The notes below the pieces were generated by a model. That model made no database searches and had not been told where the DNA came from. It saw only the letters and a program-made list of their open reading frames with translations. From assembly GCA_002772895.1 (NCBI GenBank), contig PFCS01000050.1, positions 6,728-70,727 on the forward strand: 64,000 nt of DNA, given 5' to 3'. Source of the DNA: Parcubacteria group bacterium CG10_big_fil_rev_8_21_14_0_10_36_14. GTDB taxonomy: Bacteria > Patescibacteriota > Patescibacteriia > GCA-002772895. Both the position numbers and the translations under genes were made by a program. Shown here piece after piece: positions 12,516 through 58,659 of this stretch. Position 1 is the first letter of the stretch. Each line of letters starts with the position of its first letter.

Positions 12516-12549
12516 TCAGCGGCTAATTCTTATATTCTATTTTTGTATT

Positions 12550-12577: not shown

Positions 12578-12580
12578 TTT

Positions 12581-17279: not shown

Positions 17280-17282
17280 AAT

Positions 17283-17957: not shown

Positions 17958-17959
17958 AT

Positions 17960-40351: not shown

Positions 40352-41154
40352 AACTTTTTTGCTGTAATCGTATAATTAGTGCCATTGTTAAGTCCAGCTT
40401 CGTGCTGCTTTGTCCTTTTAATTATTGCCTTTAGCATGCTTTTGTTTGAAGAGCTAAACGGAACATATCCGATTGTTTTTATAAAAAATTGTTGAAGGGC
40501 TGAAAGTGGCATTAAAACGTCATACCACTTCATATGCTTTGGCGAATGAGTATATTTTATTTCCACCACTTCAAAACCGGCTGATTTTAAAAGCTCTTCC
40601 CATCTTTCTTTTGTAAACAGGTTATAATGCTTAAAAATCTTATTTACAGAATTCATATAAGCCTTAGCCAAAAAACCAAGCCCTAGCTTGTTAAAAATTT
40701 TTGGATAAAATAAATCCGTCATATAAAAATTAGAGTGTGTGGTAAAAAAGAACACGCCTCTCGGAGCCAACACCCTGTACGCCTCTCTTACTGTTTCTTC
40801 CACCGCGGGAATATGTTCTATGACGCAATTTGATATCGCCATACTAAAACGGTTGTCTGGAAAAAGCATTTTATGCGAAGGGACACATTTTACTTCCTTA
40901 TATATACCGGATTTCTCCGCTCCTCGGCATGCACTCTCAGATATGTCCAGTCCATAAATTTCCCTGAGCACACCTTTGTCTTCCTGTTCTTTGCCCTCTA
41001 AAATCATTTTCAAAAAACTGCCATCGCCACAGCCTAAATCAAGCATCGGATAAGAAAAATCCTTACCAACCATTTCAGTATATTCCCACACCCTGCAAAG
41101 CGCATGGGAAATAGAATATTTTTTCGATGCTTTATTATAAAAATTATCAAGCAT
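40348..41154 (-). CDS. Class I SAM-dependent methyltransferase.
   Basis: LDLGCGDGSFLKMI (motif I), ...GLDISESA... and ...SNCVIEHIP...LAPRGVFFFTT. Overlaps the SDR gene by 4 nt. Confidence 0.75.
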   Translation of the reverse strand: MLDNFYNKASKKYSISHALCRVWEYTEMVGKDFSYPMLDLGCGDGSFLKMILEGKEQEDKGVLREIYGLDISESACRGAEKSGIYKEVKCVPSHKMLFPDNRFSMAISNCVIEHIPAVEETVREAYRVLAPRGVFFFTTHSNFYMTDLFYPKIFNKLGLGFLAKAYMNSVNKIFKHYNLFTKERWEELLKSAGFEVVEIKYTHSPKHMKWYDVLMPLSALQQFFIKTIGYVPFSSSNKSMLKAIIKRTKQHEAGLNNGTNYTITAKKL

Positions 41155-42224: not shown

Positions 42225-44066
42225 TTATAGATAATTTCTAGCCCAGACTTGAAATGTCATAAGCGACCATATAGTATTCAATCCATACTCTTTTTTATCA
42301 ATATGATTATTTAGTATATCATTTATTACCTCCCAATTAAATAACTCTGCAGTTTTTGAAGAATAACCGGGAGAAAGAATCTCACAGACCATCGGTTTCA
42401 AATCAGTACGCAACCACTTTGCCGCAGGCGAGAAAAATCCTCGCTTCCTCTCTTCTAAAACAAACTCCGGCAGAATATCCGCAAAGGCATTTTTTAAACA
42501 TTTTTTTCCTTGATATCTACTATTTAATTTATATTTTGACGGTATCCTAAAAGCTAGCTCCACAAGTTCTTTATCTAAAAAAGGCACTCTTTCTTCAAGT
42601 CCGTGAGCCATTGTCAGTTTATCACTACGAATAAGTGACTCATCCGGAAGCCAAGTTTTTAAATCAGTCAATATCATTTGATTAACGTTATCTTTTACAC
42701 TTTTTTCAAAATACCTGGTATAAGCATTCCTTACAGAATAAGCATTATTGAAATCATTATTTAAAAATCTTGATATAACATCTTCTTTCTGCGCCATAAA
42801 AAGCCAAAAACGGTCCAATCCGTGTTCACTAGATAACTTTTTTGCCAACTCTTCTTTACCAAAAATTCCTCCGATAGATTGAACAATTTTTTTATTCATT
42901 AACAACGGGAAAAACATTCGCGCTCTTTCTATAAAATAGTTATAATAATACCTATCATAACCCCCAAAAGTTTCATCTCCCCCGTCTCCCCCTAAAACAA
43001 CTGCGACCTGATTTTTTGCTTCTTTCGCAAGAATATAAGTTGCTACTTGGATATGATTGGAGACCGGTTCATCCATAGCAATAATACAATTTTCAAAATT
43101 ATCCTTAACGTCTTTTGCCGTAATAGTAATTGGAGTATGCGCTGTATTAAAATACTCGGCAGTTTTTTTCGCTAAGTTAAAATCCGCATTAAATTTTTCT
43201 TTTTCAATCTCTGTTTCAAATCCAACTGAAAATGTTTTTATCGGTCCCTTTGCGCTCTTTGTCATTGCCGCGCAAATAATACTTGAATCAAGCCCGCCTG
43301 AAAGAAAAAGTCCAACCGGCCTATCAGAAATAAGCTGACGTTCTACTGCACGTTCCACTTGTTCTCTAATCAATATCCGTAGATCAGCCTCACTCTCTTT
43401 TAGATATGTCCCCTCTTCTAAATCGTAATAACTTTCTATTTTTAAATTATTATCCTTTACAATTGCGAAATGTCCGGGCTGTAATTTCATAATTCCTTGC
43501 CACATCGTTTCTGGACCTAAGCAATATAAAAAACGCAAGTATTTGTTCAATGCATCAATATTTAAATCTTTCCTTACATTTTCATATTCCAAAATTGCTT
43601 TTACTTCTGATGAAAAAATAAATTTTCTATTGTTATGCCAGTAATATAGTGGCTTTACGCCAGATTGATCACGCGCCAAAAAAAGCTCTTTCTTTTGCTT
43701 ATCCCAAATAGCAAAAGAAAAAATTCCATTAAATTTTTTCAGCGCATCTTCCCCCCATTTTATAAAACTGTATAGAACAACCTCCGTATCGGAATCAGAT
43801 TTAAAATTAAATTCTAATAATTCTTTTTTTATTTCTTTAAAATTATATAACTCGCCGTTATAGGTAATAACAAATCTTCCATCAGCGCTCTTCATTGGCT
43901 GACTGGCCTTATCACTCAAATCAATAATAGCTAACCGCCTATGTCCTAAAGAAATATTTTCATCCAAAAAAATACCCCCGCCGTCAGGTCCGCGGTGAGT
44001 AATTTTTGTATTCATCTTTTTTATCAAGTCTTCGTCGCGCCAATTAAAACCGTTTATTCCACACAT
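42225..44066 (-). CDS. asnB: Asparagine synthetase B-type glutamine amidotransferase (AsnB/WbpS-like); putative glycan carboxyl amidation.
   Basis: Class II amidotransferase N-terminus MCGINGF (Cys2 nucleophile; start trimmed to this Met), ...HRGPDGGGIF...GHRRLAIIDL... and the PP-loop SGGLDSS. Confidence 0.85.
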   Translation of the reverse strand: MCGINGFNWRDEDLIKKMNTKITHRGPDGGGIFLDENISLGHRRLAIIDLSDKASQPMKSADGRFVITYNGELYNFKEIKKELLEFNFKSDSDTEVVLYSFIKWGEDALKKFNGIFSFAIWDKQKKELFLARDQSGVKPLYYWHNNRKFIFSSEVKAILEYENVRKDLNIDALNKYLRFLYCLGPETMWQGIMKLQPGHFAIVKDNNLKIESYYDLEEGTYLKESEADLRILIREQVERAVERQLISDRPVGLFLSGGLDSSIICAAMTKSAKGPIKTFSVGFETEIEKEKFNADFNLAKKTAEYFNTAHTPITITAKDVKDNFENCIIAMDEPVSNHIQVATYILAKEAKNQVAVVLGGDGGDETFGGYDRYYYNYFIERARMFFPLLMNKKIVQSIGGIFGKEELAKKLSSEHGLDRFWLFMAQKEDVISRFLNNDFNNAYSVRNAYTRYFEKSVKDNVNQMILTDLKTWLPDESLIRSDKLTMAHGLEERVPFLDKELVELAFRIPSKYKLNSRYQGKKCLKNAFADILPEFVLEERKRGFFSPAAKWLRTDLKPMVCEILSPGYSSKTAELFNWEVINDILNNHIDKKEYGLNTIWSLMTFQVWARNYL

Positions 44067-44184
44067 TTTATTTTTTTGCAATTAAATATAAAATATCTCT
44101 CCTTGCCGAAAAAATTTCCGACTTTATTAAGATTCAATTTTTTAAAAACTACCTTTATATTATTTTAAACACAAATAGAATAGT

Positions 44185-45120
44185 TTACTTCTTCTGTAAT
44201 ATTCTTTGTGAAATAAATTTTAAAATTTTTTTAGTGTATGCGGGAATTACATAAAAAGAATCAGAAATTATCCTTTTTCTAATATATTTTTTAATTTCTT
44301 TATAAGAATTCTCGTTTTCTAAATTTAATTCTAAAATATTACTTTCTATTCTAGTAGCAATTACTTGAATACGAGAGGGTTTTTTAACATTCCTACTAAT
44401 TATTTTAAACCCACCATTTTTTAAAACCCTACTTAATGTAGCTGGCGAATAATTGTAATAATGCCAAAAATCGAAAAAATGCCTTACTCGCCGCTCAAAA
44501 TTTAGAATATTCGGAACTTCTATATATAAAAATCCATTCAGATTTAAAAAAGTACTAATCTTTTTTAATATTTGGACTGGCTCAGAAAAATGTTCAAAAA
44601 CATGATGCATTAAGATAATATCAAATTTTTCCGCGCCTCTTTCTTTATCATAAAATTCCTCAAAAGTGCCATGATAAATATCAAGACCATACTTGGCTAT
44701 CGCGTAACAGGCTGAAGTAGCCGGCTCTATCCCCTTAGTTTTGCAACCATAGCTATTTTTAATGTCTTTCAAAAATAAACCAAAACCGGAACCGATTTCC
44801 AATACATTATATTCTGGTTTTAAAAATTTTGATAAAAAAGTCAAATTAATATTTTCACCCTTATTCTTTTCCAATACGTGTTGCATATATTCTTCTATCT
44901 TTTCTTCAGTATCTAACGCGAAACAACTGGCAACATAATTTTCTTTAGAAAAACCCATTACATCATTCGGCGCCTTTCTCGGATTTATATAAACTAAGCC
45001 ACACTCTTTGCAAATAACATTATTAAACTTCACAAGCTTTTCCCCTCTTTTAAAAATACCCTTATTGTAAATAAGCTCCGAACTACTATCGTTACAAATC
45101 GCACAAGTTATTTTTTTCAT
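44185..45120 (-). CDS. Zinc-ribbon-containing class I SAM methyltransferase (paralog 3).
   Basis: CAICNDSSSELIY...VICKECGLVYINPRK, LEIGSGFGLFLKDI, ...HHVFEHFSEPVQIL...GFLYIEVPNI. Confidence 0.7.
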   Translation of the reverse strand: MKKITCAICNDSSSELIYNKGIFKRGEKLVKFNNVICKECGLVYINPRKAPNDVMGFSKENYVASCFALDTEEKIEEYMQHVLEKNKGENINLTFLSKFLKPEYNVLEIGSGFGLFLKDIKNSYGCKTKGIEPATSACYAIAKYGLDIYHGTFEEFYDKERGAEKFDIILMHHVFEHFSEPVQILKKISTFLNLNGFLYIEVPNILNFERRVRHFFDFWHYYNYSPATLSRVLKNGGFKIISRNVKKPSRIQVIATRIESNILELNLENENSYKEIKKYIRKRIISDSFYVIPAYTKKILKFISQRILQKK

Positions 45121-45171: not shown

Positions 45172-45918
45172 TTATTTCTTTGTAATTAAATATAGAGTGT
45201 CTCTTCTCGATTGAAAAATCTCTGACAATAACCAACTTAAAAATTTTGGAAATTTTTTAAAATTAAACATCCATTGTTTTTTAAAATAAGTATTATGCAT
45301 ATGGACTTCCATGTCTTTAAATCCAACAATCTTTGCCATTTTCTTTAATTCATCCGCAGTAAATTCTCTAGTATGTCCATACGGCTGACCGTTCACGAAA
45401 AAATCATCAAAATCCCAATATACGCTTTTTCCAAACAAAAATCTTGCTTGTTTTAAAAAAGTCGCCAAATTAGGAGTTGATAAAACCAAGATCCCGCCCG
45501 GCTTAAGAGTTTTATATATTTTTTCTAAAAATCTTTTTTGACTATAGCCTAAATGTTCTATAACGTTTTCAGAAATAATCGCATCATAAGTTCCCTCTTC
45601 TAAACTACAATCAAAAAGATCTTCCACTTTTATATCCAATCCAAACTTTTGCCACAAGTCTTCTACGCCCTCTATCCCCCATTCTTCCAAAATGTACTTA
45701 TCAATCCCACTTGTTTTTGCTCCTAATAAATTTAAGGTATGTACCAAGATACCGAGACCACTTCCAACTTCTAATATTTTTTTATTTTCAAAACTACCCA
45801 TCCTTTCCTTGAATAAAGACAGTGTATTCAAGTGCTCCTTCTCCTCTTTTTTCCATCTTTTAGAAAGAGGCGATAAATCATGATACGATTTTTCTAATTT
45901 TATTTTAAAATCTTCCAT
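45172..45918 (-). CDS. Class I SAM-dependent methyltransferase.
   Basis: ILEVGSGLGILVHTL (motif I), ...AIISENVIEHLG...LKPGGILVLSTPN. Confidence 0.75.
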   Translation of the reverse strand: MEDFKIKLEKSYHDLSPLSKRWKKEEKEHLNTLSLFKERMGSFENKKILEVGSGLGILVHTLNLLGAKTSGIDKYILEEWGIEGVEDLWQKFGLDIKVEDLFDCSLEEGTYDAIISENVIEHLGYSQKRFLEKIYKTLKPGGILVLSTPNLATFLKQARFLFGKSVYWDFDDFFVNGQPYGHTREFTADELKKMAKIVGFKDMEVHMHNTYFKKQWMFNFKKFPKFLSWLLSEIFQSRRDTLYLITKK

Positions 45919-45919
45919 A

Positions 45920-46924
45920 TTAATTTCCTGCTTTTATATATTCTCCCATTTTTTTAACAAGCGACTCTAAAGAATGATTTTCTTTAACAATTTTGCGCGA
46001 TTCTTCTATCGATAAAAAATTAATATTTTTTATATATTCTGCAATCGCTTCCGGCGTTTCTTCTTTTGGAAAATCCGGTAATCCAATCGCTCTGGCATTG
46101 TTTGACGTTGTTACTACTTGCAGTCCGGCAAGCATCGCCTCTATCATTGTTTTATCAATAGTTTCTAAAGCCATATTTACCATAATCTGATATTGAGGAT
46201 ATATTTTTAAAAGTTCGGGCATTGGCACAGAACCCATCAGTTTTACCCTATCTACAAGATTTAATTCTTTAATTAAATCCTTTATTTCTTTTGCATAGTT
46301 ATCCTCTAATTCACGACCATAAACTGTTAGGGTGTATTCATCAGGTAAAAATTTTAGCGCTTTTATTACCAAGTCGAGACGTTTTGAGCGACATACCCTG
46401 TGTATCGATAAGAGTTCTGTCTTTGCCCTTCTCTCGTTCTGAGGCGTAGCATTAAAATCCCAAAAACGCATGTCTATCCCATGTCCAGTAACTATCTTTT
46501 TAGGATCTCCTTCATACTGAGGCATACTATTTTTTGTTGCGCAAAAAAGACGTTTACAAAGCCAATGACTAACTCGTAAAGGAAAATGCATTGTATAATG
46601 GGTGTACCATAAATAAACAGGGGTATTTTTTATCCGCCAAAATAAAGCACCGGGTACAATCCATTTTGGATTCATATGAACAAATACCCTATCATAATCA
46701 AGGCTTAAAATAAGTTTTAAAAATATCAGCATTGACTTAAACTTACTAAATCCTTTTTCACGGCCTAAAGAATAAACTGGAAAATTGTCAGTATAAACCT
46801 CTTTCTCATGACAAATAACACTTATGTCAAAGCCTTGGCGTATAAACTCTTTCACCCAAAGAGAAGCGAATGCAAAATCATCATCTCGCTCATGTATCTT
46901 TGTGGTTATAAATAAAAGTTTCAT
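45920..46924 (-). CDS. Glycosyltransferase, GT-B fold (GT4/GT1-like).
   Basis: C-terminal half ...LLSIHRVCRSKRLDLVIKALKFLPDEYTLTVYG...MIEAMLAGLQVVTT matches GT4 C-domain topology. 334 aa. Confidence 0.65.
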   Translation of the reverse strand: MKLLFITTKIHERDDDFAFASLWVKEFIRQGFDISVICHEKEVYTDNFPVYSLGREKGFSKFKSMLIFLKLILSLDYDRVFVHMNPKWIVPGALFWRIKNTPVYLWYTHYTMHFPLRVSHWLCKRLFCATKNSMPQYEGDPKKIVTGHGIDMRFWDFNATPQNERRAKTELLSIHRVCRSKRLDLVIKALKFLPDEYTLTVYGRELEDNYAKEIKDLIKELNLVDRVKLMGSVPMPELLKIYPQYQIMVNMALETIDKTMIEAMLAGLQVVTTSNNARAIGLPDFPKEETPEAIAEYIKNINFLSIEESRKIVKENHSLESLVKKMGEYIKAGN

Positions 46925-48009
46925 ATATTAAGATGTTCGGCTAATATGCCCATTATCCTTTTGCTTGCATTACCATCCCAGCCCATTATTTCTCCTTCTC
47001 TTTTTTTCCACTCACCATTCAAAACTCTTCCCACAGCTTCAAATATTTTTTCTTTATCTCTTCCCACAACTTCATTTGTTCCAAGTTCGCAAGTTACCGG
47101 TCTTTCTGTTTCTTCGCGTAAAGTAATACATGGCACATTAAAAATAGTCGTCTCTTCCTGTATTCCGCCGGAATCAGTTAAAACGAATTCGGCATTTTTT
47201 TGTAAATTTATGAAATCCAAATATGGTTGAGGTCCTAGAATAGTAAAATTTGCAGTCAAATTAAAATCTTTTAACGCTTTTTCTGTTCTAGGATGAAGCG
47301 GACAAATAACGGGTATACTTTTATTTATTTCATTGATAGCAAAAAGTAATTCTGCCAGATGTTTACCATCGCTTACGTTTTCCGTGCGATGCAAAGTTAA
47401 CAAAGCATAACCTTTCGGAGTTAAAGAATTTTTCACAAGAGCATCAGACCTCTCAGATAAATCACCAAAATGTAAAAGTGTATCAATCATCACGTTACCA
47501 CTAAAAAATACTTTATCCTCTGTAATGCCCTCTGCTTTCAAATTATTAACAGCGCTATTTTCGGTTACAAAAAGAAAATCTGACAGATGGTCTGTCATAA
47601 CTCTATTTGCTTCTTCCGGCATTTTCCAATTAAAACTACGGAGTCCTGCTTCAACGTGGGCGACTGGAACATTTTCACTGGCTCCAGCCAAGGCTCCTGC
47701 TAAAGTAGAATTAACATCTCCGACAACAACTATCAAATCCGGTTTTAATGCTCTGATATATAAAGAAAGCATTTTTAAGGTCTTACCGATCTGCTCCCTT
47801 CTCGATCCAGAGCCTATGCCCAAGTTTGCCAAAGGTCTTGGCATTTTGAACTCTCTAAAAAATACTTCCGAAAGTTCGTCATCATAATGCTGTCCCGTAT
47901 GTATTATTCCTATTTGCAACTTATCCGCATATAAAGAAGCCGCCCTTGTAAGGGCAGATATCTTCATAAAATTAGGTCTGGCTCCAGCTATAAATAGGAT
48001 TTTCTTCAT
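46921..48009 (-). CDS. wecB: UDP-N-acetylglucosamine 2-epimerase, non-hydrolysing (WecB/MnaA family).
   Basis: MKKILFIAGARPNFMKISALTRAA...IHTGQHYDDELSEVFF...DLIVVVGDVNSTLAGALAGASENVPVAHVEAGLRSFN is the WecB signature. 362 aa. Confidence 0.85.
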   Translation of the reverse strand: MKKILFIAGARPNFMKISALTRAASLYADKLQIGIIHTGQHYDDELSEVFFREFKMPRPLANLGIGSGSRREQIGKTLKMLSLYIRALKPDLIVVVGDVNSTLAGALAGASENVPVAHVEAGLRSFNWKMPEEANRVMTDHLSDFLFVTENSAVNNLKAEGITEDKVFFSGNVMIDTLLHFGDLSERSDALVKNSLTPKGYALLTLHRTENVSDGKHLAELLFAINEINKSIPVICPLHPRTEKALKDFNLTANFTILGPQPYLDFINLQKNAEFVLTDSGGIQEETTIFNVPCITLREETERPVTCELGTNEVVGRDKEKIFEAVGRVLNGEWKKREGEIMGWDGNASKRIMGILAEHLNI

Positions 48010-49208: not shown

Positions 49209-49943
49209 TTATAATTTTCTTATTCGTTTCCATTGCCTCAACATTTTATATATCCATATCATAAAAAATCCCGATGCGTAAAAATATAAATACCAGTCTA
49301 TATGCCCTATGAGAACGGCTATAATAAGCACAAAAAACATTCCCGTGCCGGTAAAAAAATTTCTGTATATTAAATAAAATATGTTTGTGGGTGCCTTTTT
49401 ATACTGGAGCCAACCGTAAGTCTTGCCTTGTTTTTCCGCGACAATCCTCTGCATTGCGTCATACCTAAACTCCGCAAGCCGAAATAAAAGCTTTGATACA
49501 GTCGCTATAAGGGTGGCTATTAAAGGCAGACGGTTTCCAAGAATCAATGACTGGCCGATACCTATCGGCAAAAAATAAAAGGCATACATTATGTCATGAC
49601 TTACCGGCTCTACATAAGCGCCACCTATATTTCCTCCTTGAGCGGATTTTTTATAGCGCGCAACTTCGCCGTCACAAGCATCCAATATGAATGATATGAA
49701 CATCAAAATAAGTCCAATTATATAAAAATTCACTCTTCCAAAAATAAATAGTGACACTCCTGACAAATAAAAAATAGTTCCAAGCGCTGTAATCTGATTT
49801 GGTGTAATAGGTGTATGGATAAAAACATGGGTAAAATAAATAGAAAAAATCCTGTTTATCCTACCCTCAATGCTTTGTGTTTGCCATGAAGGCGCGTATT
49901 CTGATTTTTGGCAAATCTTTCTAAGTTCTTTTATTCCCGACAT
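49209..49943 (-). CDS. CDP-alcohol phosphatidyltransferase-family membrane enzyme.
   Basis: LDACDGEVARYKKSAQGG...D matches the CDP-OH_P_transf D-x2-DG-x2-AR...G...D...D signature. About 6 TM helices. Confidence 0.6.
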   Translation of the reverse strand: MSGIKELRKICQKSEYAPSWQTQSIEGRINRIFSIYFTHVFIHTPITPNQITALGTIFYLSGVSLFIFGRVNFYIIGLILMFISFILDACDGEVARYKKSAQGGNIGGAYVEPVSHDIMYAFYFLPIGIGQSLILGNRLPLIATLIATVSKLLFRLAEFRYDAMQRIVAEKQGKTYGWLQYKKAPTNIFYLIYRNFFTGTGMFFVLIIAVLIGHIDWYLYFYASGFFMIWIYKMLRQWKRIRKL

Positions 49944-49954: not shown

Positions 49955-50572
49955 TTATTTTTTTAAAAGATAAAAATGTTTTGTCGGCACATCATATGGC
50001 GTAAAACTTTTTTCTATTTTCCAGCCTGTCGCTTTTATCCGACTCTCTACCCGCTTTAACGGATATCTTCTTCTACCCGGCTCCCAATAGTGCTGACCGT
50101 CAAATTTATGCGCTTTCATTGCCGGCATTTTTAAAAATAATTTTAACGGCGGTAAAAACGGTTTTTTCAAATAAAAATTACAAAGTGTTCTCCTTGCATC
50201 AGGAAGAGAAATAATCGCCCATTTTTTGGAAACCCTTGCCATTTCTTTAAGGCAAGCGTCAAATTTTTCAAACGGCAAATGTTCCAAAACCTCAGCCGCC
50301 AGCACGCAATCAACCGTTTCTCCTTCCATTGGTATTTTTTCTACCGACCCGACAAAATCCGGTTCAAGTCCTTTGTCTATATCCAGAGCCAAAACCGATT
50401 TGCCGGCTTTTTTTAAATAATCCTTTACAATCCCATTACCAATGCCAACTTCCAAAACAGACCTTGCGTCTATCTCTAATGCTAAATCTATCTGATACCA
50501 ATAAGAAAGCCATCGTGCCTTATGGTTATAGCGTCTATTAAAATAATGATTTTTTTCTACTTGCAAATCCAT
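49955..50572 (-). CDS. Class I SAM-dependent methyltransferase.
   Basis: VLEVGIGNGIVKDYLKKAGKSVLALDID and ...VDCVLAAEVLEHLPFEKF... Confidence 0.7.
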   Translation of the reverse strand: MDLQVEKNHYFNRRYNHKARWLSYWYQIDLALEIDARSVLEVGIGNGIVKDYLKKAGKSVLALDIDKGLEPDFVGSVEKIPMEGETVDCVLAAEVLEHLPFEKFDACLKEMARVSKKWAIISLPDARRTLCNFYLKKPFLPPLKLFLKMPAMKAHKFDGQHYWEPGRRRYPLKRVESRIKATGWKIEKSFTPYDVPTKHFYLLKK

Positions 50573-50575: not shown

Positions 50576-51679
50576 TTACTTTTGATATAATTCTTTTAAA
50601 AGTCCGGCAACATATTTTATCTGTTCTTCTCTAAGTTCAGGATACATCGGCAAAGACAAAATCTTCTTCGCAAGCCCTTCCGAAACCGGATAATCGCCAT
50701 TCTTCCAACCAAAATCTGCATAAGCTTCTTGCAAATGTACCGGTATTGGATAATGAATTCCGGAAAAAACATCATGCTTTTTTAAATAATCCACAAGCTC
50801 ATCTCTTTTTTCCGTCAAAATCACAAATAAATGATAATTATGCTTATTGTATTCTTCTTCTTTAATTATTTCCACTGGCAAGCCCGATAGATTCTCTCTA
50901 TATAATCTTGCATTTTTTCTTCTGGATTCTATCCAATTGTCCAGATACTTAAGCTTTAAACCTAAAACAGCACCCTGAAAGCCACTCATTCTAAAATTCC
51001 CCCCGATTACGCTATGTTTATATTTCTCCAGCGCACCATGATCGCGGATTAATTTTACTTTGCTTATTAAATCGGCATTATTTGAAGCAACTGCTCCGCC
51101 TTCTCCATATGCGCCAAGATTTTTTCCCGGATAAAAGCTAAAAGCACCCACATCGCCTATCGTACCGGCTTTCTTACCTTTATATTCGGCCCCATGAGCC
51201 TGACAAGCATCTTCTATCACAAATAATCCGCGTTCTTTCGCAATTCTTAAAATTTCATCCATATCGGCACACTGGCCGTATAAGTGAACAGGTATAATTG
51301 CTTTTGTTTTTTCTGTAATAGTACTCTCTAATTGTGAAACGTCCATAAGCGCGCTTTCTTTGCAAACATCAACAAAAACAGGTTTTGCACCGGTTAAGGA
51401 CACTGCCTCGGCTGTAGCTATAAAAGTATTCGGAACGGTTATTACTTCGTCTTCCGGACCTATACCTAACGCGCGTAAAGCGCAATAAAGGGCTGACGTA
51501 CCGGAATTTACACATGCCACGGCTTGCGCCCCCAGATAATCGGCAAAATCCCTTTCAAAATTAAAAACTGCCGGACCTTGAATAAAAGCGCAAGAATCTA
51601 AGATACCCTCCAATGCGCTTTTTATTTCCCCTTTCATCGGTTGATACTGTGCCTCTAAGTCTATAAATGGTACTTTCAT
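50576..51679 (-). CDS. PLP-dependent sugar aminotransferase, DegT/DnrJ/EryC1/StrS family (WbpE/ArnB-like).
   Basis: MKVPFIDLEAQYQPMKGEIKSALEGIL...AVACVNSGTSALYCALRALGIGPEDEVITVPNTFIATAEAV...AIIPVHLYGQ...FSFYPGKNL (catalytic Lys region). Start trimmed to MKVPFIDL. Confidence 0.85.
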   Translation of the reverse strand: MKVPFIDLEAQYQPMKGEIKSALEGILDSCAFIQGPAVFNFERDFADYLGAQAVACVNSGTSALYCALRALGIGPEDEVITVPNTFIATAEAVSLTGAKPVFVDVCKESALMDVSQLESTITEKTKAIIPVHLYGQCADMDEILRIAKERGLFVIEDACQAHGAEYKGKKAGTIGDVGAFSFYPGKNLGAYGEGGAVASNNADLISKVKLIRDHGALEKYKHSVIGGNFRMSGFQGAVLGLKLKYLDNWIESRRKNARLYRENLSGLPVEIIKEEEYNKHNYHLFVILTEKRDELVDYLKKHDVFSGIHYPIPVHLQEAYADFGWKNGDYPVSEGLAKKILSLPMYPELREEQIKYVAGLLKELYQK

Positions 51680-51687: not shown

Positions 51688-52473
51688 TTATTTTTTTATG
51701 GCGTCTTTTGATAAAATCAAATGATAGCGCACAAACCTCCAAATAAATTTAATAGGTAAACTGTCTTTCGGATGCATAATTTTATCATATAGCGACTTTC
51801 GTAATATGTTTAGAGCTTTTAAAAAATTTATTACCGCTACTCTTGATCCTTTTCTAAAACCCAAACCGCTTCTTTTCTTTTTCATTATACTTAAATAATT
51901 ATTATCTTTTATAATACACTCATCATAAGTAGGCCATCCGCTTATTGCAGTTGATTTTAGATATACACTTTTTACATTTTCGGGAATTATCAGTGTTTCA
52001 TGAACAACTTTCTTGGGGTCAAAATGAATTCCGGTTTTAAGGTTAAACAACCTAGGATAATAATCCGGCATGAAAAAAGCGTATTTTATGATGCGTCCGC
52101 TTTTTAACAAAGGAGAACGTTGGATACATCCGATAATATTTTCATCCTCGGATTCGATAAAGCTGCTAATCTCATTTTCAAGCTCCGAAGTTATATATTC
52201 ATCAGAGTCTATGTCAAAAATCCAGTCATAGCGGGCAAAGGACAGTGCCCTATTCCTCATCTCGGCAAAATTTGAAATACGCACATTAGGCTCATTGGTA
52301 TCAACTTGCTTATAAACTGGGATATTATATTTTTTTGCTATTTCAAGGGTTTTATCCGTGCTGTTTCCATCAACAAGGTACACGTCATCAAAATTTATCA
52401 GGCTAGAAAGCAAACGCTCAAGCGTCTCCTCGTTATTTAATGTCAAAATTGGTACTGAACAAGCTATTTTCAT
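51688..52473 (-). CDS. Glycosyltransferase family 2-like protein.
   Basis: MKIACSVPILTLNNEETLERLLSSL...VYLVDGNSTDKTLEIAKKY...DIDSDE is a GT2-type N-terminal fold with a DxD/DxSDE motif. Start trimmed to MKIACS. Confidence 0.55.
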   Translation of the reverse strand: MKIACSVPILTLNNEETLERLLSSLINFDDVYLVDGNSTDKTLEIAKKYNIPVYKQVDTNEPNVRISNFAEMRNRALSFARYDWIFDIDSDEYITSELENEISSFIESEDENIIGCIQRSPLLKSGRIIKYAFFMPDYYPRLFNLKTGIHFDPKKVVHETLIIPENVKSVYLKSTAISGWPTYDECIIKDNNYLSIMKKKRSGLGFRKGSRVAVINFLKALNILRKSLYDKIMHPKDSLPIKFIWRFVRYHLILSKDAIKK

Positions 52474-53189
52474 AAAGTTGCAAAGACATAAATTTCTGCA
52501 CACAATTCTGCAGGAATATCTTTACTTACATTATACAAAGCGCTAATCATTTTTGGCTCTAATCCATTCAATTGACTATTAGATAACATCTTAAGAAAAA
52601 AACCGCCTTTTTTCTTTATTTGCCAACCAGCACCTTCAATATCAGCAACAAGGCTCTTCATGTCATAAATTCTCTGATGACAAAACTTTATATCGCGTTC
52701 ATTAAATTCATATAAATTTTCTAACATACCCATTTCCTTTCCGATTTGACGATGAAGAGATTGTGCATTTGGAACATTAATATATATCATACCATCTTCT
52801 TTAATTAAATTTTTATATTTTTTTAATAACTCTACAGGCTCATCAACTTCGTGCAACATACTAGAAAAAATAATTGCATCATATTTTTTATTCGATTCGA
52901 AATCAATAAATAGCGAATGATTAAATTTAATGGCTTCTGCCTTAGCTCCTAATTTTTTTTTCGTTGCTAAAATATAATGTTCGCCGCCTTCTACAACCTC
53001 TAAGGATTTACTAATTTCTAAAAGATTCTTAGTCATTAATCCGTTTGCGCACCCAAGCTCTAATGCATCTCCTAAATTTGGATAATTTTCTTGTAAACAT
53101 CTAAAACGAAAATCAATAAAATAGCGATCAAAATCAACTTCCGTATTATAACACCCTGCATATTTATTTATTGAATCTTTAGTCTGCAT
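52470..53189 (-). CDS. Class I SAM-dependent methyltransferase.
   Basis: ALELGCANGLMTKNLLEI (motif I), ...AIIFSSMLHEVDEPVELL...GMIYINVPN. Confidence 0.75.
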   Translation of the reverse strand: MQTKDSINKYAGCYNTEVDFDRYFIDFRFRCLQENYPNLGDALELGCANGLMTKNLLEISKSLEVVEGGEHYILATKKKLGAKAEAIKFNHSLFIDFESNKKYDAIIFSSMLHEVDEPVELLKKYKNLIKEDGMIYINVPNAQSLHRQIGKEMGMLENLYEFNERDIKFCHQRIYDMKSLVADIEGAGWQIKKKGGFFLKMLSNSQLNGLEPKMISALYNVSKDIPAELCAEIYVFATL

Positions 53190-53190: not shown

Positions 53191-54708
53191 TTATTTTATC
53201 CATTTTTCTTCTGGATGGTCATTTCTATTTTTTTTAGTTTGGGTTATTTCAATAAAATATTCCGGCAAGCGCACTCCGCATCCTTCCCTATACAAGGATC
53301 GTAAAGCTCCGTAAATATAATTTAAATGGCGCTCATTTAAGTTCTGATGGATTGGGAAAAAACATGCGTTATTATGATAATAAGCTCCGCATTCAATTCC
53401 AAAATGCCTGAGCCTGCCACTTACTTCAAGCATTTTTTCGTGGCTTCCAACCCTCAACATCAGCGCTGCCGGCACTTCGCCCAACTTTAATTCAAAAAAA
53501 GTTTCGAAACCTTCTTCTTTTGCCAGCTTTTCTAAATATCTATAATTATACAACCTCTTTTCCGCCGCTTCATCTTCTCCTTTTATAAATGCGGAAAGTT
53601 GTTCTTTTATTACCTCCCTTTTCTTAACGTCCAAACAATAAAAATTATCCCATATTTCCTTATCACTAAAGGACACGCCGACTAAAATACCTCCGTATTG
53701 GACGGGAAAAAATTTTGGAAAAGAATAAATTACATAATCGCCATATTGCCCGGCATCTCCGCTATTCCATGCATATGCACAGTCCTCAATAAGAGGCCAG
53801 CCATGTTCTTTGCACATTTGTTTTATCTCTTTTCGTTTGGGATGCAAAAAACCAAACTCATGTATTAAAATAACCGCTTTTGTCTTACTGGATATTTTGC
53901 GCGACCAGGAACATACCTCTTCTACGGTTGTGGAAACTCCGATAGACAAATAAGGTGATCCTGTTGTCGTGGTAATGAATACCTCATCATCCTGTTTTAG
54001 TCCTAAATATTTTAATACTGCAAAGATAGCATACTTTCCGCGAGGAAAATATGTAAAAGGCTTATGATCAAATTTTTCGCCAAGCTTTTTATCGACATCA
54101 ATACCGTTATCAGGCATTGACCCAAGACTACTGGTATCAAAAGGGGTTATGTCTATTTGGGGGATTAAGTCGGGCGCATGGAAAATAGTAGGATACTCGT
54201 ATGTCGCCCAATTTTTAAAAAACTCTTGCAAGGATGGCTTAAAAGAACACCCTATATCAAGATATCTAAATTTTGAGTTATGGTATTGCTCTACAATATT
54301 CCATATCATCAAACTAGGAATCCCAAACTTTTTTGCCTCTTCATTGGCGCCATTAAACCATAAAAATAATATATTATCCACTTCGCCGACAATCGTTCCT
54401 GCAACAAATTTACCATTTAAATAAGCAAACCATCCGCGCCAATTATCTTTAAACCCCCCTCCACCTAAATTCAAATCTGAATCTTGCGGATTGTACCATA
54501 CTGTCCGAAAGAGGTCTATGTCGCTTTTTGTACCTGCAACTTTTTTTATTTCCAAACCGCTTAAATTTTTGGCCTTTACTATTGAGCGCTTTGCTCTGCG
54601 AGAAATCCTATCCCAAGCCAGCTCTTTATTCAGAATTAAAGAGCTACCAAAAGACAGACAGTCCTTTCCAATATATTTTTTTTGGAATATATCGCGCTTG
54701 CCGGGCAT
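53191..54708 (-). CDS. Two-domain protein: N-terminal FemAB/GNAT-like (Acetyltransf_6-type) domain fused to a C-terminal DegT-like PLP-fold (aminotransferase-like) domain.
   Basis: N-terminal FVAGTIVGEVDNILFLWFNGANEEAKKFGIPSLMIWNIVEQY...RYLDIGCSFKPSLQEFFKNWATYEY is FemAB-like. C-terminal GKYAIFAVLKYLGLKQDDEVFITTTTGSPYLSIGVSTTVEEV...KTKAVILIHEFGF...LIEDCAYAWNSG...YGDYVIYSFPKFFPVQYGGILVG parallels DegT motifs (DEVI, TKAIipVHlyG, IEDaAqA, SFxxxK). Confidence 0.45.
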   Translation of the reverse strand: MPGKRDIFQKKYIGKDCLSFGSSLILNKELAWDRISRRAKRSIVKAKNLSGLEIKKVAGTKSDIDLFRTVWYNPQDSDLNLGGGGFKDNWRGWFAYLNGKFVAGTIVGEVDNILFLWFNGANEEAKKFGIPSLMIWNIVEQYHNSKFRYLDIGCSFKPSLQEFFKNWATYEYPTIFHAPDLIPQIDITPFDTSSLGSMPDNGIDVDKKLGEKFDHKPFTYFPRGKYAIFAVLKYLGLKQDDEVFITTTTGSPYLSIGVSTTVEEVCSWSRKISSKTKAVILIHEFGFLHPKRKEIKQMCKEHGWPLIEDCAYAWNSGDAGQYGDYVIYSFPKFFPVQYGGILVGVSFSDKEIWDNFYCLDVKKREVIKEQLSAFIKGEDEAAEKRLYNYRYLEKLAKEEGFETFFELKLGEVPAALMLRVGSHEKMLEVSGRLRHFGIECGAYYHNNACFFPIHQNLNERHLNYIYGALRSLYREGCGVRLPEYFIEITQTKKNRNDHPEEKWIK

Positions 54709-54709: not shown

Positions 54710-55717
54710 TTACCTATTGCGTTTTAATATTTTTTGAGTAGCCTCCAAAATACGGACCACCTCATAGCCTTCTTCTCCGCCGGTTAAAGAAGGTTTGCCA
54801 TTCACCGCGCAATCCGCAAAATGGCTTATTTCTATAGCTAGTGCTTCGGACCGTTCCAATGCCGGAATATAGACATCACCGCTCCTGTATATTACGTCAC
54901 TTGGTGTCTCACTTTTAAAATCCAAGTCTGCTCCATGATCATACACCTTGACTTTTTCAGTTGGTTCTATATCGTTATATAAAACCATTTTTTTGCTTCC
55001 GCCAATCAACATTTTTCTTATTTTAACCGGTGAGAGCCATCCTATGTGTATGTGCGCCATGGTCCCAGAAGGATATTCCAAATGAATATGCGCCATTTCC
55101 TCTACTGGATTTTCTCTGTTCTGCGTAACATAACTTTTCCCAAAAGCCGCCACAGACATAGGCTTTTCCTTTAAAATATAATTAAAAATCGAAAGATCAT
55201 GAACTGCCAAGTCATAAATGACATTTACATCCGGCTGTATAAGCCCGAGATTAATCCTTTCGGAATCAATATACCTTATTTCTCCCAATTCATCAGCATT
55301 AATAAGCTCCTTTATTTTCCTGACAGCGCCAGTATAAATAAACGTATGGTCAACATGAAGTAATAAATTATTTTTCTTTGCCAATTCAATCAATTCTCTT
55401 GCTTCGGCGGATGTTTCAGTCATAGGCTTTTCAACAAAAACATGCTTACTCGACTCCAAAGCACGTTTGGCTAGCTTATAATGGCTCACAACCGGCGTTG
55501 CTATAAAAACAGCTTCAATATCTTTTGCCTTAAATATGTCTTCGGAATCACAAGTGGTTTTTATAAATGGAAAATTACTTCTTGCCCTTTCCAAAAGCCT
55601 GAGGTCCAAATCACATACATAGACCAAAGAAACGCTTGCGGACGAAGCTGCATTTCGTATCAAGTTTTTTCCCCAGTAACCTGCGCCAATAATTGCTATT
55701 TTTAACGGGTATTCCAT
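54710..55717 (-). CDS. Gfo/Idh/MocA-family NAD(P)-dependent sugar dehydrogenase (WbpB/WlbA-like UDP-sugar 3-dehydrogenase).
   Basis: LKIAIIGAGYWGKNLIRN (Rossmann) and ...HVFVEKPMTET... (the EKP motif of the Gfo/Idh/MocA family). 335 aa. Confidence 0.8.
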   Translation of the reverse strand: MEYPLKIAIIGAGYWGKNLIRNAASSASVSLVYVCDLDLRLLERARSNFPFIKTTCDSEDIFKAKDIEAVFIATPVVSHYKLAKRALESSKHVFVEKPMTETSAEARELIELAKKNNLLLHVDHTFIYTGAVRKIKELINADELGEIRYIDSERINLGLIQPDVNVIYDLAVHDLSIFNYILKEKPMSVAAFGKSYVTQNRENPVEEMAHIHLEYPSGTMAHIHIGWLSPVKIRKMLIGGSKKMVLYNDIEPTEKVKVYDHGADLDFKSETPSDVIYRSGDVYIPALERSEALAIEISHFADCAVNGKPSLTGGEEGYEVVRILEATQKILKRNR

Positions 55718-55839: not shown

Positions 55840-58659
55840 ATGCTCAAAATAATAATTGAAAAGCACAAAAAGAAACTGCTGGCATGCGCGGTGTTATTTA
55901 TTATCGGTATTTTATCTGCCAATTTATTTTTCTTGGGAATATATATAAGAAACAACAAAAATATCTTGATTTTTGATTCTGCAGTACAATATCTCCTACC
56001 TGTTTATCGATTTATGCGCAAAAGTTATAATAACGCGATAAATACGTTCTATCTGCCAAAAACAATAGGGGCATCGGAAATACCCCACTACAAATTGACG
56101 ATTAAAAAAAATCAGCTGGAAAAATTAAATAAAAATTTGCCTGAGTCGATATCCGATGCCGTTTTTAGCGGAAGTGTTTTCTTGGAGGACGAATATAAGA
56201 AAACAGTGCCCGCAATCTTTTCTTATGGTGACAAAAAATACGAAGTAGAGGTACATTACCGAGGTGACAACCCAAACCATTGGACCAAAGAAAAAAAATC
56301 TTGGCAAATAATATTCAGCCAGGAAAACTTATTTAACGGCCAAGAAGTGTTAAAACTTATATTGCCCATAGACCGAGGTTATCTTGCGGAGGCTCTAAAT
56401 GCTTATCGGGCAAAAAAAATGGGTCTATTGGTGCCTGCGGACAATTTTGTAAATTTAGAAATAAATAAAAAAAATGCTGGCGTATATTACCAAGTCGAAG
56501 ATTGGTCAAAAGGATTTTTGGAAAAACAACAAGTGCCGGCCGACTCCAGTATTTATACGACCAATGACGGTCTTATTAGCCTCAGAAAAGAAGAAAACCG
56601 CCAAGATACATCAGCCTTTGAAGATATAAATCTTTGGAAAAAAAATATATCTGATAAATTATTTACTTATAATAATTTTTCAGATATAAAAAAACTGGTC
56701 GAAATACTGCAAAGCCAAAATAAAGACGAAGCATACAAAATATTGCCACAAATACTTGATATGGAAAAGTTTTACAGCTGGACTAACGTTGCCCTATTGG
56801 TTTCAGGAGGCCATCAGGGAGGTAAAGGCAATATGCGTCTATACTTTAACAATAGTAGCGGAAAATTTGAACCAATCCCTTGGGATGTAACAATAAGAGA
56901 TAGCGATGCGCTTTTTGAAGACTGGCAAAGTATCATCAATAACTTTATATATTCAAATAAAAAATTATTTTTTGAACAAAAAAAATCCCTGTGGAATTAT
57001 TTAAGTAACGAAGATAATTTAAAAGACGACCTAAGCTTTTATGATAAACTTTATGAAACAACACGCCCAGCTTTTTACGATGATTGGATAAAAGTAGACA
57101 ATAATTTAACCTTTGATAAAAAAATAAAAGAAATGCGCGATATTATTAAAAATAGGTTTAGTAATCTAAAAGATCTTTATAAAATTGATAATTCAAGCAT
57201 GATTATAAATTATGACTCCGATATAAATCTGATAACGGCAACGACTAAAGCGGATAATTTCGCCGGCATAATGCTAAAAAGCCTTAAACTACCGACAGAC
57301 GACAATATGTTTGTTGAAGCATTTGATGATTCCAATAATAATCTTAAACTTGATAAGGACGATAAAATCATAAAAACCGGCTACATCAATAAAAATGACA
57401 ACACAATAAAAGATATTAATAAATTAATTTATGATAAAGATGAAGTGGCCATATTCATAAAAATTATTCCTTATGGAACACAGCAAAACGGCTTAAATCT
57501 TAAAAATGTAAAAATAAAATTTGACAATGCAATCACCAAAAAAGATATTGATATAAAAAGCATAGTCTTATCAGACGACACCTCTTTTAATTATCTTCCC
57601 AAGACTATCTATAGTCCTCGGCAATTTGTAAACGAAAATCCCATATTTAAAACAGATGGAGAAAAAATATTTCTACCCGCTGGCTCTTATACCATCACAA
57701 AAAATATAATAATTCCGCAAAAATCCCAGTTGATAATACAGCCTGGCGTTGTCCTAACCTTTTATCCAAAAATATCACTCATATCTTACAGCCCTGTTTC
57801 GGCAATTGGCTATTCCGATAGTCCTATTATATTCCAATCCGCCTATCAAGGGCAACCGTGGGGATCTTTTGGCATAGTTAATACCGAGAAAGAAAAAAAC
57901 AAGCTACAATTTATAAATATATCCGGTGGTGGGAGTTCTTATATAAACGGTATTTTCTTTAGTGGAATGTTATCAGCCTACCATGCCGACCTTGAATTAA
58001 GCGATAGTTTAATTCAAAACAGCTCATCGGATGACGGCGCAAATGCAAAGTACGGAAATGTGGTAATAAAAAATAACAGATTTATAAAAAATAGTGCGGA
58101 CGGCTTGGATATAGACTACGCAAAAGGAGAGATAAGTAATAATTATTTTAGTAGCAATGGCAATGACGGCATAGATATCTCCGGTTCTTCAATCAGTATT
58201 AAAAATAATACAATACTTGCATCAGGGGACAAATGTATAAGCGTAGGAGAGAATTCAAAAGAGCCGGTTATTTTTAATAATATTTTAAATGGATGTAATA
58301 TAGGAATAGAATCAAAAGATTTATCAACCCCGGTTATTTTGAATAATGTCATTATAAATAATAATATAGGCATAAATGCCTATAGAAAAAAAGAGATTTT
58401 TGGTGGCGGATTTGGAAAAATATATAACAATATTATCTGGGACAATAAAGAAAATATAAAAACGGATGAATACTCACAATTCGAAGCTGATTACAACGAC
58501 ATTGAAACCAACTATTCAGGAGAGTATAACTTTTATGAAGAGCCATCTGAAAATTATTATAAACCGGGTTTAGAAAATTATCACGGTAAAGGAAACCGGG
58601 ACATTCTAAAAAAATATCTTGAAATTAATCTTGAGGAAGCTCCGGTAGGGCTAATGTAA
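55840..58659 (+). CDS. CotH-family domain fused to a right-handed beta-helix repeat domain (paralog of 32622-35312), membrane-anchored/secreted.
   Basis: TM anchor LLACAVLFIIGILSANLFFL. CotH-like FSYGDKKYEVEVHYRGDNPNHWTKEKKSWQIIFSQENLF...LKLILPIDRGYLAEALNAYRAKKMGL. Beta-helix repeats ...DGLDIDYAKGEISNNYFSSNGNDGIDISGSSISIKNN...NIGINAY... are colinear with the other copy. Confidence 0.65.
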   Translation: MLKIIIEKHKKKLLACAVLFIIGILSANLFFLGIYIRNNKNILIFDSAVQYLLPVYRFMRKSYNNAINTFYLPKTIGASEIPHYKLTIKKNQLEKLNKNLPESISDAVFSGSVFLEDEYKKTVPAIFSYGDKKYEVEVHYRGDNPNHWTKEKKSWQIIFSQENLFNGQEVLKLILPIDRGYLAEALNAYRAKKMGLLVPADNFVNLEINKKNAGVYYQVEDWSKGFLEKQQVPADSSIYTTNDGLISLRKEENRQDTSAFEDINLWKKNISDKLFTYNNFSDIKKLVEILQSQNKDEAYKILPQILDMEKFYSWTNVALLVSGGHQGGKGNMRLYFNNSSGKFEPIPWDVTIRDSDALFEDWQSIINNFIYSNKKLFFEQKKSLWNYLSNEDNLKDDLSFYDKLYETTRPAFYDDWIKVDNNLTFDKKIKEMRDIIKNRFSNLKDLYKIDNSSMIINYDSDINLITATTKADNFAGIMLKSLKLPTDDNMFVEAFDDSNNNLKLDKDDKIIKTGYINKNDNTIKDINKLIYDKDEVAIFIKIIPYGTQQNGLNLKNVKIKFDNAITKKDIDIKSIVLSDDTSFNYLPKTIYSPRQFVNENPIFKTDGEKIFLPAGSYTITKNIIIPQKSQLIIQPGVVLTFYPKISLISYSPVSAIGYSDSPIIFQSAYQGQPWGSFGIVNTEKEKNKLQFINISGGGSSYINGIFFSGMLSAYHADLELSDSLIQNSSSDDGANAKYGNVVIKNNRFIKNSADGLDIDYAKGEISNNYFSSNGNDGIDISGSSISIKNNTILASGDKCISVGENSKEPVIFNNILNGCNIGIESKDLSTPVILNNVIINNNIGINAYRKKEIFGGGFGKIYNNIIWDNKENIKTDEYSQFEADYNDIETNYSGEYNFYEEPSENYYKPGLENYHGKGNRDILKKYLEINLEEAPVGLM

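Follow-up and report, generated by a model that had tools for sequence, protein, structure and literature searches.

A Fem-type GNAT domain and a trimmed DegT-fold module, fused or encoded side by side, in nucleotide-3-amino-sugar cassettes of Patescibacteria and Bacteroidota

Introduction

Many bacterial surface polysaccharides contain amino sugars with unusual N-acyl groups, amino acids among them, and to our knowledge the enzymes installing these groups are largely unknown. In the WbpB/WbpE/WbpD and GnnA/GnnB pathways, a GFO/IDH/MocA-family 3-dehydrogenase is followed by a DegT aminotransferase and then by an N-acyltransferase. Here we analyse a stretch of 64,000 nucleotides (the window) from the Parcubacteria group bacterium CG10_big_fil_rev_8_21_14_0_10_36_14 (contig PFCS01000050.1, positions 6,728 to 70,727), in which one gene at 53191-54708 on the minus strand joins a Fem-type GNAT domain to a trimmed DegT-fold module of the pyridoxal 5'-phosphate (PLP) enzymes, hereafter the C-module. 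The glycan cluster of the window resembles the Wbp and Gnn systems, a UDP-N-acetylglucosamine (UDP-GlcNAc) 2-epimerase and an AsnB-like amidotransferase also being present, but the Fem-type GNAT domain and a second, trimmed DegT-fold module stand where a WbpD-type hexapeptide acetyltransferase would be expected.

A combination of PLP and Fem-type domains is found in DhpH, whose PLP domain, in work of Bougioukou et al. from 2013, is said to make an amine that the Fem-type domain then aminoacylates. DhpH, of the dehydrophos system, is like the fusion in having a Fem-type domain, one that aminoacylates an amine and depends on Leu-tRNA (DhpH-C; PMC12945691). In DhpH, however, the order is reversed (PLP domain, then Fem-type domain), DhpH-C consists of two GNAT folds, and the substrate is a phosphonate amino acid instead of a sugar nucleotide. 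Fem-type acylation of an amino sugar has a precedent in Orf11/Sbb17, and the known Fem-type enzymes need two GNAT folds (PMC12945691). Two such folds make up FemABX, MprF and Sbb17 (Orf11) proteins (PF13480/PF02388), whereas the fusion has one, from which the chain runs on into the PLP module; the acceptor-binding first GNAT domain of FemABX is missing from the fusions, and their tRNA dependence is putative.

The C-module is 13-21% identical to the DegT aminotransferases WecE (PDB 4piw), PseC (2fn6), WbpE (3nu8), TlmJ (5uid) and BtrR (2c7t), and unlike canonical DegT proteins it is always partnered with a Fem-like protein. A shortened DegT-type protein has been described in SerTA of Serratia sp. 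ATCC 39006 (PDB 8y96-8y98), an obligatory heterodimer of Ser4 and Ser5 with one active site; as shown by Nishiyama and co-workers, the truncated DegT-like Ser4 is the essential partner of the complete Ser5 (PMC11726168). The likeness lies in shortened and complete DegT-type genes being encoded together, here in 69 of 78 loci and, in the protein P0080, fused. Ser4 has about 210 residues and comprises the large domain only, without the PLP-binding Lys and Asp, whereas the C-module has about 300-330 residues, both domains and both of these residues. The substrate of SerTA is an amino acid bound to a carrier protein, and no Fem-type partner is described in the parts consulted (PMC11726168). Both domains of the fusion come from known superfamilies, but the C-module is without several canonical DegT features and the N-terminal domain is without the two-GNAT architecture.

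Domain architecture of the fusion protein

The fusion gene is a single uninterrupted open reading frame (ORF) encoding 505 amino acids (aa), and its product is identical to the public protein PIR66441.1, a 'hypothetical protein' of a Parcubacteria group metagenome-assembled genome (MAG). The original prediction, made from the letters of the window, had taken the two halves for one polypeptide. This is borne out by the uninterrupted frame and by about 37 homologues of 458-511 aa; because these keep the same two-domain layout, the halves are not separate ORFs. The AlphaFold model of the 505-aa protein, with two domains, is confident (predicted local distance difference test (pLDDT) 91.5, predicted template modelling score (pTM) 0.89), in agreement with the arrangement that had been proposed. 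Low model confidence (pLDDT 65-75 in the last blocks) is confined to the C-terminal tail, aa 474-505 (53194-53289, minus strand), which occurs only in the closest relatives and is missing from a shorter clade and from the stand-alone forms.

The N-terminal domain, aa 1-175 (54184-54708, minus strand), consists of one GNAT fold, of the Fem/Acetyltransf_6 type. Pfam Acetyltransf_6 (PF13480) matched aa 87-154 with 30.4 bits against a gathering score of 22 (E 4.9e-7), so that the FemAB/Acetyltransf_6 likeness originally noticed holds, while the length of about 200 aa given with it has to be reduced to about 175; NCBIfam TIGR03019 FemAB reached only 11.4 bits on the fusion protein. The domain corresponds to GNAT domain 2 of FemX/MprF-type aminoacyl-tRNA transferases, and the structures that match it best belong for the most part to GNAT transferases dependent on aminoacyl-tRNA, among them a crystal structure of Sbb17 with its amino-sugar substrate. 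Judged by eye, its beta4-alpha3 consensus, TxEAKxxQIPSL, holds no Q/RxxGxG/A coenzyme A (CoA) pyrophosphate motif. In FemX and DhpH-C the catalytic Lys (K305 and F328-K329, respectively) lies in an F-K motif (PMC12945691). The fusion carries K165 in an F-F-K-N-W box (codon 54214-54216, minus strand), by motif the putative counterpart of the Lys in the 'GLxxFKES' box of the separate Fem-like partners described below. The equivalence of K165 to FemX K305 is one of motif correspondence, not of direct alignment, and the same Lys is invariant in 44 split partners.

Kinship of the N-terminal domain with these partners appears at the profile level, the FEM310 hidden Markov model (HMM) matching aa 95-155 with 22 bits, and tblastn matches extend from the last part of the Fem-like gene into the gene for the C-module. 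BLASTP found nothing significant between the N-terminal domain and either the split Fem-like protein of locus L005 or the 246-aa Fem-like protein encoded elsewhere in the window (E 0.88 for the latter). Under the model proposed below, an aminoacyl-tRNA would be the most likely acyl donor, and an acyl-CoA is possible.

For the C-terminal half, a profile was built from aa 176 onward of 44 family members, six stand-alone proteins included and reaching down to 31% identity, and was compared by hhalign with a canonical DegT profile of 23 proteins. The module starts with a proline-rich strand, aa 176-199 (Y-P-x-I-x-x-P-x-L-x-P-x-I-x-I-T-P-F-D; 54112-54183, minus strand), in which P179, P183, P189 and F190 are at least 90% conserved, stand-alone homologues of 281-310 aa included. 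It continues with aa 200-473 (53290-54111, minus strand), the large and small domains of a fold-type-I PLP protein, which are colinear with DegT positions 36-365 (probability 100%, E 8e-44). Pfam DegT_DnrJ_EryC1 (PF01041) matched aa 269-361 with 37.5 bits against 19.8, on profile positions 106-200 of 360 only, and the best PDB matches returned by Foldseek were all DegT-type sugar aminotransferases. The DegT relationship that had been proposed for this half was recovered by both kinds of profile search, and each of the sequence boxes quoted for it was located (DEV at aa 241, TKAVILIHEFG at 276, IEDCAYA at 307 and SFPK at 329).

Alignment also located the two residues on which PLP binding would depend. 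K332 in the S-F-P-K box (codon 53713-53715, minus strand), the candidate Schiff-base Lys, aligned with the Schiff-base Lys of the DegT profile after a 2-residue gap and with the Lys of BtrR by phmmer. D309 in the I-E-D-C-A box (codon 53782-53784, minus strand), the candidate ligand of the pyridine nitrogen, aligned with the Asp of the canonical 'IEDAxQ' in the DegT profile and, by phmmer, in BtrR. The phosphate-binding Ser is retained as S329. Among the 44 proteins, D309, S329 and H283 are invariant (44/44), and K332 and Y253 are each present in 43. A PLP-fold pseudoenzyme scaffold had been offered originally as the other reading of the protein. Because the PLP Lys and Asp are conserved, a dead pseudoenzyme is unlikely for the window protein; a pure pseudoenzyme was rejected here and accepted for a separate subfamily of about 400 aa. 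By these alignments the C-module is a trimmed yet complete DegT-fold protein, with large and small domains, whose predicted cofactor-binding residues are kept.

Gene context and the conserved cassette

In the window, a dehydrogenase gene (54710-55717, minus strand) ends 1 nt before the fusion ATG, and the fusion stop codon lies 1 nt before a methyltransferase gene, both junctions reading TAA-T-ATG. The dehydrogenase had been predicted as a neighbour, and its family is indeed GFO/IDH/MocA (Pfam GFO_IDH_MocA 87.5 bits, plus C-terminal domains). Its best NCBIfam match was UDP-GlcNAc 3-dehydrogenase, at 157.8 bits and so under the 450-bit cut-off. In a PDB search WbpB was not among the 34 matches at E <= 1e-10, and 7bvj, annotated only as an NAD-binding oxidoreductase and presumably GnnA, matched with E 1.5e-15. 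The enzyme is presumed to be a nucleotide-sugar 3-dehydrogenase with a GnnA/WbpB-like role, making the keto substrate.

The gene that starts 1 nt after the fusion stop (52470-53189, minus strand) encodes an S-adenosylmethionine (SAM)-dependent methyltransferase, NodS/Methyltransf_23-like by Pfam. A TylM1/DesVI-type N,N-dimethyltransferase was considered for it, and neither protein was among its PDB matches, the best of which was the uncharacterised 2p7h. The same operon contains a family-2 glycosyltransferase (51688-52503, minus strand; Pfam Glycos_transf_2 50.5 bits), and a canonical, full-length DegT sugar aminotransferase follows at 50576-51679 (minus strand), as had been foreseen (PF01041 399 bits, profile positions 4-358 of 360; NCBIfam PseC/WecE-like, under the equivalog cut-offs). 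The window's ORFs were searched down to a length of 150 aa (down to 80 aa between 48 and 60 kb) without a hexapeptide acyltransferase being found, which leaves the GNAT domain of the fusion as the only nearby N-acyltransferase candidate; nor was a hexapeptide acetyltransferase found in the syntenic locus L001.

The neighbourhood was then compared across 78 loci, 21 of them non-redundant fusion loci and 57 with stand-alone C-modules, in which genes were called and labelled with seed HMMs. A GFO dehydrogenase lies directly upstream in 17 of the 21 fusion loci, and a glycosyltransferase gene of family 2 (GT2) recurs near the fusion in many loci. The gene directly downstream encodes a hexapeptide transferase (left-handed beta-helix, LbH) in 8/21 and a NodS-like methyltransferase in 2/21, one of these two being the window. 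Canonical DegT genes were found within 6 genes in 18/21 fusion and 51/57 stand-alone loci (69/78 in total, about 88%). In L020, and in L030, a locus syntenic with the window, the dehydrogenase and the fusion are present, and the 10 kb to each side contain no other aminotransferase, whatever its class.

The stand-alone cassettes run in the order FdtA-like, FdtA-like, ~310-aa protein, C-module and then LbH (36), methyltransferase (5) or DegT (10; n = 57), with FdtA-type 3,4-ketoisomerases upstream in 47 of the 57. The ~310-aa protein is Fem-like, and a Fem-like gene was present in every stand-alone locus uncut by a contig end, mostly directly upstream of the C-module; locus L048, a candidate for a C-module without one, proved to contain an intact Fem-like gene. 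Fused or adjacent, the Fem-type/PLP-module partnership is placed invariably in nucleotide-3-amino-sugar cassettes, after a keto-former.

Both tandem cupins are members of the 3,4-ketoisomerase family and match WlaRB, FdtA and QdtA best. The first reads 'GGHALK' (L066 1824-2219 and the equivalent first cupins of Bacteroidota), against the canonical 'GGHAHK' of the second, and is presumably without the second active-site His known from FdtA; from this motif it may be inactive or of altered specificity. The cassette LbH proteins were considered as sugar N-acetyltransferases of the WbpD/QdtC/WlbB type, but could not be shown to be such; their best matches were maltose/galactoside O-acetyltransferases, which they resemble more closely. 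In L048, a 566-aa protein encoded directly downstream of the C-module (10890-12590) has a NodS-like methyltransferase half, and its N-terminal half looks, by eye, like a sugar N-formyltransferase ('HLGILPKYRG' motif). In L027 and L028 the gene after LbH encodes a 638-aa fusion of a canonical DegT with a GT2 glycosyltransferase.

Family distribution and architectures

A word-indexed search gave six stand-alone C-modules and about 37 full-length fusions, of 458-511 aa and at 34-79% identity, as well as a single protein of 656 aa that carries an extra hexapeptide acyltransferase at its C-terminus; the architecture of P0022 is GNAT, C-module, LbH. An exhaustive profile search of 1.84 billion cluster representatives (clusters at 50% identity, E <= 1e-30) returned 301 clusters, and the 150 matches listed were mostly stand-alone proteins of about 300 aa. 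Relatives occurred in 160 of 185,579 species scanned with one genome each, and neighbourhoods were taken from the best 80 loci. The fusions come from Patescibacteria (Taylor-, Falkow-, Peri/Peregrini-, Sacchari- and Uhrbacteria), one Methylomirabilis MAG and one 'Gammaproteobacteria' MAG, and the stand-alone C-modules from Bacteroidota. In the latter the two modules are encoded by adjacent genes, for a Fem-like protein of about 310 aa and a protein of about 305 aa (Pfam PLP_IMCC1989). The ~310-aa partners form one family, with the Fem hallmark 'GLxxFKES' and its Lys invariant in 44 proteins; 16 of the 44 individually reached Pfam Acetyltransf_6, and their length is sufficient for two GNAT folds.

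Further fusions tie the C-module to other enzymes of the cassette. In P0080 (679 aa) it is fused to a complete canonical DegT. This second C-module copy follows a fusion gene whose product is 69% identical to the window protein (both in L087 2399-5937), with a radical-SAM/SPASM gene and a GFO dehydrogenase upstream. The evidence for P0080 is a single assembled contig of 6.9 kb, and the DegT keeps its own Met at the junction, so that P0080 may reflect a lost stop codon. P0163, a radical-SAM/SPASM domain fused to a C-module, was seen on two independent contigs (L088 10001-12013, and L089) and is adjoined by FdtA, DegT, an Acetyltransf_6 gene and a 551-aa methyltransferase. Its pairing resembles that of BtrN, a keto-former, with the aminotransferase BtrR/BtrS; BtrR is also the best PDB sequence match of the fusion protein.

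The subfamily of about 400 aa (L091 1894-3105; P0119, P0141, P0148, P0165, P0182, P0186 and P0206) has a deletion of about 95 residues that removes every PLP-binding element and keeps the GNAT and small domains. In its one long context it accompanies a MurA-type gene (EPSP_synthase family) and an M28 peptidase-PDZ protein, not a sugar cassette, and it may be a cell-wall-related offshoot.

Public names of the relatives include 'hypothetical protein', 'GNAT family N-acetyltransferase', 'DegT... aminotransferase' and 'DapH/DapD/GlmU-related'. Pfam PF27889, 'PLP_IMCC1989', has precomputed matches on the close homologues P0012, P0014 and P0035 and on the stand-alone P0040-P0045, which means that the C-module family is already catalogued. 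The name gives fold and source organism only, and no functional description was found, a literature search on IMCC1989 included. Nor did a literature search covering FemAB+DegT fusions, tRNA-dependent acylation of amino sugars, Sbb17, and Qui3N/Fuc3N with GNAT find the family described.

Function of the fusion and rival explanations

The original prediction had suggested that a single polypeptide aminates a keto sugar and then N-acylates or aminoacylates it. We infer this to be the best single model, and a plausible one, though short of probable: the fusion would, tentatively, be the amination and N-acylation arm of a nucleotide-activated 3-amino-sugar pathway for a surface glycan. By family membership and gene order, the dehydrogenase would oxidise C3 of a UDP-GlcNAc-type sugar to an unstable 3-keto sugar. 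The C-module, using K332, D309 and S329, would bind this keto sugar and convert it to the 3-amino sugar with PLP/pyridoxamine 5'-phosphate, acting alone or paired with the operon's canonical DegT in a dimer of the DegT type. The Fem-type GNAT domain, held against the PLP module, would then acylate the new amine. Finally, the downstream methyltransferase could modify an amine of the product, a step for which an acetyl- or formyltransferase gene would stand in other genomes. We favour amination followed by acylation because the dehydrogenase is spaced 1 nt from the fusion and lies upstream in 17/21 loci, and because two loci hold no other aminotransferase. Rosetta-stone support comes from the separate C-modules, which have a Fem-like gene in the same cassette.

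A number of observations weigh against this model. The C-module is about 60 residues shorter than canonical DegT (PF01041). The original prediction had put all of these at the start of the fold, where in fact only the first ~35 canonical residues are without an aligned counterpart; between aa 246 and 276 the large domain has lost a net ~13 residues, and a small-domain loop of ~26 residues is deleted after aa 445. The phosphate-binding Thr of the canonical 'SGT' is not conserved (R-G/A-x-Y), the cross-subunit N-x-R-M is replaced by a conserved D360-x-x-K363, and the spacing from Ser to Lys is 3 residues as against 5. Among the NCBIfam aminotransferase equivalogs (PseC, WecE, ArnB, LegC, DesI and others) the best score was 23.8 bits, with a cut-off of 420. 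On the side of the GNAT domain, the window protein has a single fold of about 175 aa, and the position of K165, though Lys in the window protein, is Lys in only 19 of 38 fusions (Ser in 11, Thr in 4). The ~400-aa subfamily implies that the GNAT part can work without PLP chemistry. Moreover, with a canonical DegT within 6 genes in 69 of 78 loci, a second sugar aminotransferase looks redundant, and P0080 links the C-module covalently to such a DegT.

The near-constant canonical DegT leads to two rival explanations. In one, possible though doubtful, the C-module is an adaptor of the SerTA kind that pairs with the canonical DegT and docks the Fem-type acyltransferase on it; the 3-amino sugar would pass directly from the DegT site to the GNAT site, and the PLP held by K332 and D309 would have a structural role or serve a second, minor active site. 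Such an adaptor would account for the co-occurrence in 69/78 loci, for the covalent P0080 beside a fusion so close to the window protein (69% identity), for the loss from the C-module of the N-terminus and the cross-subunit N-x-R-M that canonical homodimers use, and for GNAT and C-module forms without PLP. Yet Ser4 is without the Lys, the Asp and the small domain, all three of which the C-module keeps (K in 43/44, D in 44/44), and sequence searching gave no specific link to Ser4, only the Ser5 chain being matched (E 0.063). In L030 and L020 there is no DegT within 10 kb with which to pair, the 6.9-kb contig and retained Met of P0080 allow for a lost stop, and the DegT of the window is fully canonical and could homodimerise. 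We also considered two parallel branches, one running from the first FdtA through DegT to LbH and the other from the second FdtA through the C-module to the Fem-like protein.

The other rival, which we judge unlikely, leaves the making of the 3-amino sugar to the DegT; the Fem domain adds an amino acid to it, and the PLP of the C-module acts on the aminoacyl group. Its target would be the alpha-amino group on the sugar or, as in SelA/SepCysS, the aminoacyl-tRNA donor. The outcome would be epimerisation, transamination to a 2-oxoacyl group or beta-elimination, and a downstream transferase would cap the remaining amine. The Fem-like/C-module pair would then be a widespread, undescribed machine adding amino acids from aminoacyl-tRNA to 3-amino sugars, its PLP module re-purposed onto the aminoacyl group, a proposal that strikes us as equally improbable. 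It would explain why a core of keto-former, DegT, Fem-like protein and C-module recurs in two phyla together with the fusions that link them (GNAT-C-module, C-module-DegT, GNAT-C-module-LbH in P0022, radical-SAM-C-module), and why amine-capping genes alternate downstream (LbH 36/57 and 8/21, methyltransferase 5/57 and 2/21, the formyltransferase-methyltransferase of L048). The LbH proteins, moreover, are not demonstrably of the classical sugar 3-N-acetyltransferase type, and the deletions in the C-module could enlarge its pocket for a bulkier substrate. Against this, we know of no DegT-fold enzyme acting on an N-aminoacyl substituent or an aminoacyl-tRNA, L030 and L020 would have no aminotransferase to make the acceptor, the tight coupling is to the dehydrogenase and not to DegT, and the tRNA dependence of the GNAT domain is putative only.

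A plain N-acetyltransferase is very unlikely. Here the GNAT domain would use acetyl-CoA and replace the missing WbpD-type enzyme, the DegT-like domain being a cofactor-free scaffold for the sugar nucleotide in place of the first Fem GNAT domain. The missing hexapeptide acetyltransferase in the window ORFs searched and in L001, the single GNAT fold, the non-conservation of K165, the match of P0016 to Pfam Acetyltransf_1 and the PLP-less subfamily all fit this simpler activity. However, K332, D309, S329 and H283 are near-invariant in 44 proteins down to 31% identity, a constraint for which it is difficult to account if no cofactor is bound. Most of the best structural matches are tRNA-dependent transferases, the sequence shows no evident CoA pyrophosphate motif, the fusion is accompanied by an LbH acetyltransferase in many loci, and the PLP-less forms lie outside sugar cassettes.

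Under the favoured model of amination and then N-acylation, as under its rivals, the Fem-type transferase and trimmed PLP module form a compact, conserved and previously unannotated two-module unit in about 160 species genomes and about 300 clusters, as one polypeptide in the genome-reduced Patescibacteria and as two in Bacteroidota, which include cultured hosts such as Flavobacterium macrobrachii (L066), Flavivirga amylovorans (L051) and Namhaeicola litoreus (L035). The unit is a candidate, open to direct testing, for the acylation of nucleotide sugars by a tRNA-dependent or other unusual route, and would represent either a DegT fold whose quaternary logic has changed or another instance, the second, of the hetero-oligomeric aminotransferase principle. 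Were the PLP module to act on an aminoacyl group, the DegT fold would acquire a new class of reaction, and an aminoacyl decoration machine would supply missing enzymology for the amino-acid-acylated amino sugars of Patescibacteria and Bacteroidota glycans. If the protein is only a bifunctional aminotransferase/N-acyltransferase, the annotation of several hundred 'hypothetical' or mis-named proteins could be put right.

Other features of the window

From about 2.9 to 55.7 kb at least, the window looks like one very large glycan-biosynthesis region, almost entirely on the minus strand and with strongly negative GC skew, an unusually large size for a genome-reduced Parcubacteria bacterium. It contains many GT2 and GT4 genes and at least ten SAM methyltransferases (for example 22136-22963, 28737-29636, 40348-41154, 41269-42219, 44185-45120, 45172-45918, 49955-50572 and the 52470-53189 gene next to the fusion). 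An AsnB-like amidotransferase (42225-44081), three UDP-GlcNAc 2-epimerase-like genes (16134-17279, 30455-31648 and 46921-48009) and a CDP-alcohol phosphatidyltransferase (49209-49943) are also present. Two B12-binding radical-SAM proteins, of 534 aa (19053-20657, minus strand) and 469 aa (37111-38520, minus strand), might be sugar C-methyltransferases.

The 246-aa protein at 26619-27359 (minus strand), which the original prediction had also described as FemAB/Acetyltransf_6-like, was matched marginally by Pfam FemAB (26.2 bits against 24, aa 171-220), and showed no significant BLASTP similarity to the N-terminal domain of the fusion. Its gene is flanked by those of a Polysacc_synt flippase (27371-28747) and a Glyphos_transf protein (25248-26615), and in the syntenic L001 the corresponding position holds no gene.

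A nonulosonic (sialic-like) acid set occupies 16134-18994 (minus strand) of this candidate-phyla-radiation genome, with a NeuB-type synthase (17960-18994), a CMP-sugar-type cytidylyltransferase (17283-17957) and a hydrolysing-type 2-epimerase (16134-17279). At 13489-14280 (minus strand), a 263-aa protein of the UDP-glucose/GDP-mannose dehydrogenase family comprises part of the N-terminal domain and the central domain, with no C-terminal domain, and may come from a truncated or split gene. Two paralogues, of 896 aa (32622-35312, minus strand) and 939 aa (55840-58659, plus strand), combine a CotH kinase-like part with a right-handed beta-helix (NosD/pectate-lyase-like); the latter is encoded immediately upstream of the dehydrogenase-fusion operon and is read in the opposite direction.

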